A stretch of 64,000 bases of DNA from Amoebidium appalachense (taxonomy: Eukaryota; Protista; Ichthyosporea): the NCBI GenBank assembly GCA_963693365.1, contig CAVNZM010000008.1:3315572-3379571 (forward strand), written 5' to 3'. This document shows positions 49,201 to 52,200 of this stretch, piece by piece. The position numbers were made by a program, and so were the translations under genes. Every line of letters starts with the position of its first letter. The first letter of the stretch is position 1. Below the pieces are notes generated by a model, which had not been told where the DNA came from, did not search any database, and was given only the letters and a program-made list of their open reading frames with translations.

Positions 49201-52200
49201 CTACTTCGGTCATTTATGGACTTTGGCACACATCCTCACAAACTCCTGCATGAGAAGGGGATTTTGTGTTGCTGATGTATTGTGTAACCGTTACCAACGT
49301 TGCACATCCCCTCAGATCACCGGTTGAGGGAGATTGCGGCCTATCGGCTATGCCAGGACCCGGATGGCCGCCGAAATTTCTGCAAAGGTATATCACCATG
49401 TATATCTCGACGTATATAATGTATATCTCAATGCTTTTAATGATTTAATGGAGCAATAGGTGAATGTCAGGAGGTTTTTGGCCCCTGGCTATGTTAACAA
49501 AATTGTCAACCGTTGTCGCCTCAAGAATATCAAAAACAGGGATAGACTGAAGTGCTTGAATAGTGCTTAGAAATGAGTTTGCGTTGCAATATTTTGACAT
49601 TGAAGCAACCAGGCCAGCACGAAAGCCAAAATGCATATGCAACCACATGGTGGCACGACCAGACACAAGCACGTAGACAGAAGCGCACATACCCACACAC
49701 ATACAGACACAGACACATGATCACTCGCTGACTCACCCACCCACTCACTCACTCACTCACGTGCACATGCACACACACACACGCACCCACACCCGCGCGC
49801 TCGCGCTCACGCGTGCACACACACACACACACACACACACACACACACACACACACACACACACACACACACACATCCCCCATTCCCTCTCCTTTCCCCT
49901 CCCCCCCCCCCCTCTCCCCTCCCCCTCTTCCCCCTCTGGCCCTCTCCCTCTTCCTCCCCCCCCCCCCCCCCCCCCCCCCCCCCCCCACACACACACACAC
50001 ACACACACCCTCCTCCACACGCAGAACTTGGTGTTCCTATGCCCAGTGGTGACCGCACGGACAGGCCAGTCGATGCCGTTCACGAGGTCGAGAGGGCCGT
50101 GCTTTCTCTGCCCACCAAACCAACACTGAGATATATACAGCCCGCACCATGGGACCCAAAACTGCACACCGATCTGGCTACAAAGCTGCCTATTGCAATT
50201 GTCGGTGCGTGCAAAAAGTGAATATGTGTTTTTTTGTGTGTGCGTGTGTGTGTGTGTGTGTGTGTGTGTGCGTGTTTGTGTTTGTTTGGCGAGTGTGTGG
50301 TGTTGCTGTGGTTGTAGTGTGGGGTTTGGAGGCAAGGAACAAAAGATGGTTGTGGAGGTGTTTTTTTTGGGGGGGGGGGGGGGGGGGGGGGAGGGGGGAG
50401 GGGGGGGGGGGAAATGACAGGGAAGAAGGGAGATTTTAAATATGGGTTTGTTTGGGCAGAAAGTGTGTGGGTCCTTGTGAAGGGGGGGAGGGGGGAGGTG
50501 AGGATATGTGGGCATGTTCTTTAATGTGGACGTGAACGGGGGGTTGGTTGGGTGGGGTGGGGATGGGGATGGGAGGGGCCGAGGGGGAGGGGGGGGGGGG
50601 GGGGGGTCTGAACTAGAAGGACATCAGTGTGATGACGGGGATTGTGCATCTGATGCCATTGAATTGGCTGTATATGTGGGGAGGACTTCTCTAGGGTGGG
50701 GGGGGGGGGGGGGGGGGGGGGGGGGGGGTTAGGGTATCTGGTGGTGTGTGTCTGTGTGCAGGGGTGTTGGGTATTGAGGGGGTGCGGAAGGGGGGGGGGG
50801 GCACATGGTGAATGGGGCACTAAAGTGGTGGTATGGTTGTGTGCAGCGGGCAACAGGGCCAACTATCTGATTCGCTGCCTCAAGGCCATTTTCAAACAGC
50901 CGGTACGTTATTACATGCACATGCACACAGTGAGCGATGAACTGTGTGAATATGTGTCACCTATGGTGTGTTGTTGTGCAATTTGCTAGTTTGTAGCGTG
51001 TGGCATATTCCAGCCTCCCTCCCCCCTCCCCCGCACCCCCCTCCCCTTCTGAAACCCCCCCCCCCCCCCCCCCCCAAGACGGGACCCGCCCAAGTTCAGT
51101 TGATGCTGCTGTCTGAGTTGGAGCGTCGTATATACGCGGGCTAAGGGGTCGAAACTCAGACGCAATTGATGACTTGGGTCCTCCCTGAGGATGGGCTCTG
51201 CTTATGACGCATACTGTGCACATGGCTGATGTTGCATACTTGAATGTTTGCCTTTGCATGTGTCCTGCACCATGCTTCTCGTCGTGTATGCGTACTTCGT
51301 ACCGTTTTCCGCATTCAAACCCCCCCCCCCCCCCTCCCTCCTCCTGGCTGTAAGGGATGGTTTATAAGAATGTGAAAATCGATGGTGGTGTCAAGCAGGG
51401 AACCTACACTTGATCACCGTGTACATGTGGAATAAATAATACTACATTTTAGACATTAAGGTATAAACATCTGATAACCGTGTATACTCGGAATGATTCA
51501 GCAAGCAATTTTCACGGATTTCTAATGCGACAGACAGCATGCACCTGACAACGGCAAGATCGCACCCAATCAACTTCTTTTAAATCATATATCAGAAAGT
51601 ATGATAATCCCATACTTGGCCTTGCATCTGATCTGACCTTGCATCTGAACCCTAAAAACACTGTAAAACACGTAATTCTACACGAGCCTATTTGAAGCAC
51701 GCACTCTAATAGACGTATACCTAAAAACCAACTTGTTCTAAACACACACTGTTAAACAACTTAAAACCTAATCAATTAAAACTTTCAATAGGGGTTCAAC
51801 CCGCATCCGATGAGATTGCACACACACTATAACTTTTAAACACCAACTAATTAAACTTTTAAAAAAACAGGGAGTCAACCCGCACCTGATCACCGTCTAC
51901 ACGGACGGCATGTACGAAGAGATGGCGAACGTAGCCCGTGTGTTTGACGTCCGGCTGGTTGGGCACACAAAGACATCGTCCAACTCCAAGAAGAACAACT
52001 ACTTTAGGGCGGCTGACCAGATCACACAGCATTACAAGTTCTCACTGGGCAAGATTTATGAGCTGCATCCTGATGCTGACAATGCAATTGTGTTGGAGGA
52101 GGTAATGTGTGTGTGCATGTTGGGGAAGGGGGGGGGGGGGGAGGGGGGGGGGGGGGGGGAAATGGATGGGGTGGGGATCGGGGGGAGAGGAAGGCGGGGG

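Follow-up and report, generated by a model that had tools for sequence, protein, structure and literature searches.

What is the stem-loop that recurs in a poly-C-bounded repeat of the ichthyosporean Amoebidium appalachense? The repeat lies in a 64,000-nucleotide stretch of contig CAVNZM010000008.1 (GenBank assembly GCA_963693365.1, positions 3,315,572 to 3,379,571, forward strand), hereafter the window, in whose coordinates all positions are given. An initial annotation made from the letters alone had marked 51076-51200 as a candidate new ribozyme or cis-acting RNA with a core resembling a selenocysteine insertion sequence (SECIS) or a kink-turn. We consider it likely that the stem-loop holds a complete hammerhead core, non-circularly permuted and split between A9 and G10.1, which is predicted to cut its own RNA after GUU and likely processes the transcript of a probable Penelope-like retroelement. 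The annotation had recognised the hammerhead words and could not fold them canonically; they form a full core when the blocks are read in the order cleavage site, GAAA, CUGANGA (S-G-C) and stem II takes one strand from upstream. The RNA is therefore a ribozyme candidate of rearranged hammerhead type rather than a new ribozyme class.

The core letters, stems I to III, helix I, a consensus kink-turn and helices IV and V are directly present in the sequence and make up a five-helix junction. Positions are named in hammerhead numbering, and helix I denotes the helix joining the outer ends of stems I and II, the helix 'I' of type-SGC hammerheads. Both pairings proposed initially were found in place (51111-51119 with 51153-51161 and 51089-51095 with 51172-51178; in the 30-kb copy, 30637-30649 with 30679-30691 and CCCATG at 30620-30625 with 30699-30704). 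The suspected pseudoknot also held and is stem II: the strand before GAAA has its partner not 3′ of CUGAGGA but upstream, GACCC at 51083-51087 with 51146-51150 (5/5 Watson-Crick) and GACCTA at 30614-30619 with 30671-30676 (6/6). Stem I (51120-51123 with 51181-51184; 30650-30652 with 30708-30710), hairpin V and helix IV are additions to that first description. The parts of the 51-kb copy, and the complete copy, are as follows.

51076..51082, + strand: remnant of the hairpin V 3′ strand, where this copy is 5′-truncated directly behind a poly-C run (51060-51075)
51083..51087, + strand: stem II 5′ strand (G10.1 at 51083), supplied from upstream and not from behind CUGAGGA
51088..51098, + strand: helix I 5′ strand, also the canonical arm of the kink-turn; 7 + 3 pairs with 51170-51179
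51099..51104, + strand: bulged strand of the kink-turn, a 3-nt GUU bulge followed by G, A and U, matching the consensus in PMC5061560
51105..51119, + strand: stem III 5′ strand with extension (U16.1 at 51118, U17 at 51119); 51111-51118 pair with 51154-51161, 8/8 Watson-Crick
51119/51120, + strand: predicted cut behind GUU, placed by analogy
51120..51123, + strand: stem I strand directly behind the predicted cut; 4/4 pairs
51146..51166, + strand: stem II 3′ strand (C11.1 at 51150), GAAA (51151-51154) and stem III 3′ strand
51167..51179, + strand: non-bulged strand of the kink-turn (U, G, A at 51167-51169) and helix I 3′ strand
51181..51192, + strand: stem I partner strand, CUGAGGA (51185-51191) and an extra U after A9 (51192)
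51193..51202, + strand: helix IV 3′ strand, its partner gone through truncation
51203..51319, + strand: 3′ tail of the element, terminating in CATTCAAA at a poly-C run
30582..30728, + strand: complete copy of the other subfamily, with helices IV and V, stem II, helix I, kink-turn, stem III, stem I and core
30649/30650, + strand: predicted cut of the complete copy, again by analogy

CUGANGA, GAAA and U-H with an A15.1-U16.1 pair all occur in the 51-kb and 30.6-kb copies. Stems I, II and III adjoin the core, with G10.1-C11.1, over 4, 5 and 8 bp in the former and 3, 6 and 13 bp in the latter, and an A-U pair in stem I of the 51-kb copy is G-C in the other subfamily. In the complete copy, CUGAGGA lies at 30711-30717, the kink-turn bulge at 30630-30632, and the gap from A9 to G10.1 is filled by a U, helix IV (30587-30589 with 30719-30721 and 30582-30585 with 30725-30728; 3 + 4 bp), a second U, and hairpin V (30591-30598 with 30606-30613; 8 bp), which abuts G10.1. 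The 5′ strands of helices IV and V are absent from the 51-kb copy, and part of V and G10.1 from a 48-kb copy; in other copies, contigs carry the 5′ strands of both, with hairpin V intact, upstream of the position equivalent to 51083. Helix I, of 8-9 bp, directly flanks the strands of stems I and II, as in type-SGC hammerheads. CUGAnGA is not continuous with a stem II strand within 1-2 nt, the partner of stem II lying upstream, and the RNA is a non-standard case with respect to each of the six published hammerhead orders.

How far does this depart from what has been described? Statements on published work, here and below, hold for the portions of the cited papers that we drew on. Experiments have validated a hammerhead type in which the blocks run S-G-C and a helix connects stems I and II (Eckert et al. 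2023, PMC10085705). It is known there from 583 metatranscriptome sequences, with two metagenome sequences for type-CSG and none of either in a eukaryote genome. The window RNA shares with these types its non-circular order, the pseudoknotted stems I and II, the helix joining their outer ends, and the puzzle of how that helix is linked to the far end of stem III. In type-SGC and type-CSG RNAs, however, the strand from CUGAnGA into stem II is continuous, whereas the window RNA is open at A9/G10.1 with helices IV and V added; it also differs in that both strands run from helix I into stem III through a kink-turn, and in being a genomic repeat. Hammerheads of Penelope elements resemble it in their terminal-repeat position in a retroelement, in the extra nucleotide between 9 and 10.1, which is a conserved trait of theirs (PMC4209133), and in a likely need for a dimer or a protein: they were reported to act as dimers of low activity (Cervera and de la Pena 2014, PMC4209133), and in one case cleavage requires the protein of the element (Frangieh et al. 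2024, PMC11167929). Those hammerheads are type I, C-G-S in order and minimal in stem III, whereas the window RNA is permuted with a long stem III.

The strand order has thus been published (PMC10085705), and the split core is the new part as far as the literature searched extends. That literature, which covered few subscription papers, yielded no split hammerhead core and no link between Naiad elements and permuted hammerheads; no split core appears in the portions consulted of PMC3088659, PMC7936874, PMC10162972, PMC13725137 or bioRxiv 2026.07.22.740005. Eckert et al. take hammerhead blocks as unbroken, which limits the forms to six (PMC10085705), and the window RNA breaks this stated assumption. 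It also moves non-circular permutations from unassigned environmental contigs to named animal genomes and a high-copy repeat. Because standard descriptors and Rfam miss the split form, many genomic ribozymes may be uncounted.

Is the split layout found elsewhere? The strongest evidence for a split hammerhead comes from Naiad retroelements of animals, whose 3′ ends, given in the supplement to Craig et al. 2021 (PMC8557442), we parsed by eye and not by program. The sample held 25 of 54 Naiad 3′ ends, biased towards those with the authors' hammerhead flags, and 8 of 49 ends of the Chlamys group. Six of the 25 Naiads, from comb jelly, jellyfish, octopus and squid, appear to end in the split layout with unrelated stem sequences. 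They share the chain of helix IV, hairpin V, upstream stem II strand, helix I, bend, stem III, cut site, stem I, stem II and GAAA, with CUGANGA further on. By eye, they read as follows.

Naiad_Bfor: helix IV 10 bp, hairpin V 8, stem II 6, helix I 15, stem III 7, GUA, stem I only 2
Naiad-3_Chem: helix IV 8, hairpin V 8, stem II 4, helix I 8, stem III 5, AUA, stem I 5
Naiad-2_Movir: helix IV 5, hairpin V 9, stem II 6, helix I 7, stem III 6, AUC, stem I 4; its U-IV-U-V-II junction is that of the window RNA
Naiad_Obim and Naiad_Ovul: stem II 6, helix I 4, stem III 5, GUA, stem I 6, with the kink-turn in the opposite direction
Naiad_Esco: split layout, stem II imperfect

A further six of the 25 (nematode and spider elements) appear to end in a C-S-G form that is unsplit and has all four helices: Parc, 3_Nbra, Hpol, 2_Nbra, one more nematode element, and Smim, which has an extra U after A9. 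Craig et al. had reported half cores without structure and no canonical hammerhead in Naiads (PMC8557442). By eye, six of their eight 'HHR_half_core' families parse as permuted hammerheads, one does not and one lay outside the sample; two of the six split-layout Naiads carry the flag. These parses bear on a point left open there, namely why Naiads lack canonical hammerheads and what the half cores are.

Three other patterns were noticed among the remaining Naiad ends. Naiad-1_Movir and Naiad-4_Chem have stretches that seem to resemble the twister consensus where other Naiads have the permuted hammerhead, which suggests ribozyme swapping. Naiad-1_Chem, Naiad-2_Chem and two hemichordate Naiads share another 3′ motif, CGGGUG ... 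GCUUAC ... CACCUGA, a candidate structured RNA. In Naiad-1_Dst, Naiad-2_Dst and Naiad-3_Dst, GAAAC is followed by CCCCCUGACGA in G-then-C order; stem I could not be paired, and this may be a further arrangement.

The repeat itself is probably a Penelope-like element. Its 5′-truncated copies, common 3′ end, partial tandems and microsatellite (poly-C) targets match the 5′ truncation, partial tandems and microsatellite insertion described for Naiad and Chlamys, with (C)n as the target of Chlamys (Craig et al. 2021, PMC8557442). No gene for a reverse transcriptase and endonuclease could be linked to the repeat in the window frames searched, so we infer the class from its behaviour. No long open frame lies upstream of the motif in the window copies, and a homologue search with the 47-aa upstream frame found no link to a reverse transcriptase, a result of little weight.

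How might such an RNA work? The apical loop would dock on the basal strands and so build the active site, and the cut would fall after GUU at 51119 (30649 in the complete copy), a site placed by analogy with known hammerheads. Hammerhead cleavage leaves 2′,3′-cyclic phosphate and 5′-OH ends, and the same chemistry would be expected here. By a crude rise count, the outward path, which starts at the top of stem II and ends at the far side of stem III, spans 67-70 Å against 31-40 Å back through helix I, so docking would take place between two RNA copies, either tandem on a single transcript or on separate molecules. This count is perhaps oversimplified, because Eckert et al. describe the same joining puzzle (PMC10085705) and because helix I of 15-16 bp in the Beroe and Heligmosomoides elements is long enough for a monomer. 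Help from a protein, whether the element's own or an L7Ae-family kink-turn binder, is likely, and the two cleavage products would remain paired through the rod. The weak stem I, together with a hairpin of -8.7 kcal/mol over CUGAGGA, suggests that the RNA is off by default. Its likely role would be to trim read-through or tandem transcripts to unit length.

A wider proposal has, in our judgement, even chances. It holds that the RNA is an active hammerhead with its catalytic strand in two (the five-helix junction open at A9/G10.1), assembled across two RNA copies through kink-turn-bent rods, and an old shared ribozyme of Penelope-like elements with N-terminal endonucleases, from comb jellies to cephalopods and this eukaryote. 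Together with the unsplit C-S-G relatives, it would explain the apparent absence of hammerheads from the clade.

Several points weigh against a cleaving hammerhead. Within the RNA, stem I has only 3-4 bp (-2.5 to -3.7 kcal/mol), the local hairpin of about -8.7 kcal/mol covers CUGAGGA, and closure within one molecule looks strained for the window element by the rise count, a dimer being more likely. From what PMC10085705 states, no hammerhead is known to work once more than 1-2 nt separate CUGAnGA from its stems. The ends of the window copies do not coincide with the predicted cut. Among Naiads, 13 of the 25 ends did not parse as split or unsplit form, some of them judged from short stretches (1_Chem, 2_Chem, 4_Chem, 1_Movir, Sdum, 1_Dst, 2_Dst, 3_Dst, Omin, Adux, 1_Skow, a second hemichordate element and Tama). 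None of the eight Chlamys ends read by eye has the motif (1_cRei, 2_cRei, 9_cRei, 2_tObl, 1_dArm, 1_bBra, 1_meVir and 1_cAtm), in a group known to target poly-C. Pfam finds no reverse transcriptase or GIY-YIG domain in 149 of 236 candidate frames between 21.7 and 64 kb. The Penelope hammerhead that was tested proved dispensable for insertion in vitro, with no RNA-seq ends reported in the sections drawn on (PMC11167929). An invariant core says little here, because the family is young: across 244 nt, no more than 11 variant rows reaching 3% were listed. Cleavage is predicted from sequence, and may need a dimer or a protein.

Could the fold have stopped cutting and now serve as a scaffold that binds or positions the element's protein? 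The split core, the weak stem I and the competing hairpin would suit such a hammerhead-derived relic, as would copy ends away from the predicted site and a Penelope element that inserts without hammerhead cleavage (PMC11167929). Yet all catalytic letters and a permitted NUH triplet (GUU, GUA, AUA or AUC) appear to be retained both in the window and, with unrelated stems, in six animal elements, and other Naiads seem to bear another ribozyme-like motif, with a possible likeness to twister, at the same place. We therefore regard the scaffold as unlikely, although no other alternative fares better.

The kink-turn raises a different question. The kink-turn proposed initially is borne out in both subfamilies: a 3-nt bulge, GUU at 51 kb and AGU at 30 kb, is followed by G.A and A.G pairs between two helices (51102-51103 with 51168-51169; 30633-30634 with 30694-30695), which is the consensus (PMC5061560). 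The third pair is U.U at 51 kb and A.G at 30 kb. In the kink-turn literature, as far as consulted, a G at position 3n is reported to let the motif fold in ions, and L7Ae to be required by the box C/D type. Bulge and pairs are the same as in the standard kink-turns Kt-7 and box C/D, whereas that of the window is a hinge inside a predicted ribozyme and not a stand-alone motif. An RNA that recruits an L7Ae-family protein, box C/D-like or regulatory, with the hammerhead words incidental, would account for this consensus in both subfamilies, for the words TGATGA and CTGA, and for a very weak Rfam match to the C/D RNA sR47 (E 4.9). It would leave stems I, II, IV and V and the GUU site unexplained. 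In animals, moreover, the kink-turn is reversed in octopus, and in squid, box jellyfish, Clytia and Beroe a bulge or hairpin seems to take its place, whereas the core stays, and we hold this explanation to be quite improbable beside the split hammerhead.

Might the hairpin be an accident of a young repeat? Initially, the G-U pairs were said to work only on the + strand, and that strand does fold better (-46.9 versus -37.3 and -48.9 versus -38.8 kcal/mol). The nested fold by itself is nevertheless weak against shuffles (z -1.72 and -0.63); its energy therefore does not set the stem-loop apart from random sequence. Other measures separate it from chance. CGAAAC with CTGANGAT 20-45 nt further on occurs three times, against 0.02 in shuffles. 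A split-layout descriptor, composed after these copies had been seen, finds three window sites on the + strand, two of them also with helix I of 8-9 bp, and none on the - strand; 300 dinucleotide shuffles (38.4 Mb) gave two sites, none with helix I of at least 4 bp. Covariation, claimed in the initial annotation, was also recovered in the three window copies that span the motif: 6 of 46 pairs are altered on both sides, against 0-1 for slid controls, in a count that covers two subfamilies and a structure derived from the same copies. The paired changes between the subfamilies fall in stems I, II and III as well as in helix I, and 110 of 116 cells pair (94.8%).

Contigs add variation at a finer scale. 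In run X1, T30618C occurs in 76 contigs and A30672G in 98, each at ~5% depth; these positions face each other in a single stem II pair and were counted separately. Among the variants listed, a rarer subfamily carries A instead of U at 15.3 (one contig) and U instead of A at 16.3 (other contigs), again counted separately. None of the 11 variants listed at 3% or more touches a core position. Chance would fit the folding energies and the fact that only two subfamilies can be aligned, but the descriptor and motif nulls, the paired changes and an apparently identical architecture in distant animals make it very improbable.

A comparison with Rfam, proposed at the outset, gave no match at the gathering score; below threshold, Hammerhead_1 aligns stem II and GAAAC at 30614-30687 (E 2.1, 14.2 bits versus 34). 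The circular C-G-S order of canonical types I-III is likewise absent. Other candidates were rejected. An unsplit SGC descriptor finds no site, and HDV, twister, pistol, hatchet, hairpin and VS ribozymes have no Rfam match up to E 10. A pattern scan of metagenomes gave two matches, both within bacterial coding genes and without stems, and a scan of viral contigs gave one, also without stems; all three were set aside as chance.

The usual SECIS spacing from the GA pairs to the apical AA is 11-13 nt. A SECIS of a selenoprotein-encoding element, as described for four Naiads (PMC8557442), is scarcely credible: tandem GA pairs do stand in a long hairpin of the 3′ region, but the SECIS-like core proposed initially has 15-16 nt from these pairs to a loop that begins with GG, no apical AA behind the helix above them (as the annotation had itself stated), no Rfam SECIS match at E up to 10, no selenoprotein open reading frame (ORF) upstream within the window, and no ORF in the 450 nt of repeat upstream of the motif.

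How widely is the repeat spread? Three window copies span the motif (30.6, 48.0 and 51.1 kb), with several 3′-only copies besides; all are on the + strand and end at poly-C, and six share a common 3′ end before it. Thousands of contigs from two DNA runs match a 244-nt stretch of it (3,120 and 4,092, a depth figure and not a copy number), so the repeat is abundant. Head-to-tail joints of copies are present in contigs, and a partial tandem spans 55718-56007 in the window. The 48-kb and 51-kb copies sit between exons with ILEI and GNT-I Pfam matches. The other copies and parts are these.

29363..29445, + strand: 3′-end-only copy
30170..30581, + strand: 5′ continuation of the repeat, covered by many contigs, with no recognisable ORF, protein or Pfam match
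32426-32459 and 32568-32601, + strand: further short 3′ ends
47990..48262, + strand: damaged copy, hairpin V 3′ strand deleted, G10.1 changed to C, core CUGAAGA
~55640-55848, + strand: older diverged copy of the 3′ part, CUGAGGA box decayed
55860..56007, + strand: 5′-truncated copy retaining just the CUGAGGA part; it follows a diverged copy (~55718-55848) in partial tandem, with poly-C at the junction
~56440-56560, + strand: decayed copy of the 3′ part, CUGAGGA box decayed

Other features of the window stand apart from the repeat. At 31290-31496, 450 nt behind the complete copy, lies a fragment resembling an OTU protease (PF02338, E 0.009, under the cut-off), which may belong to a different mobile element. 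A 157-aa single-exon protein at 60472-60942 (- strand) is lipocalin-like by eye; it has no Pfam match, and a protein search returned only itself. A Polinton-like virus occupies 156-21640, with a protein-primed DNA polymerase B (PF03175), an A32-type ATPase (PF04665) and, at 14106-15692, a capsid-like ORF that has no match in Pfam. Inside it, at 6258-14111, sits a Ty3-type long terminal repeat (LTR) element with a chromodomain, whose pol frame is broken by one stop near 10475 and whose 778-bp LTRs are 100% identical.
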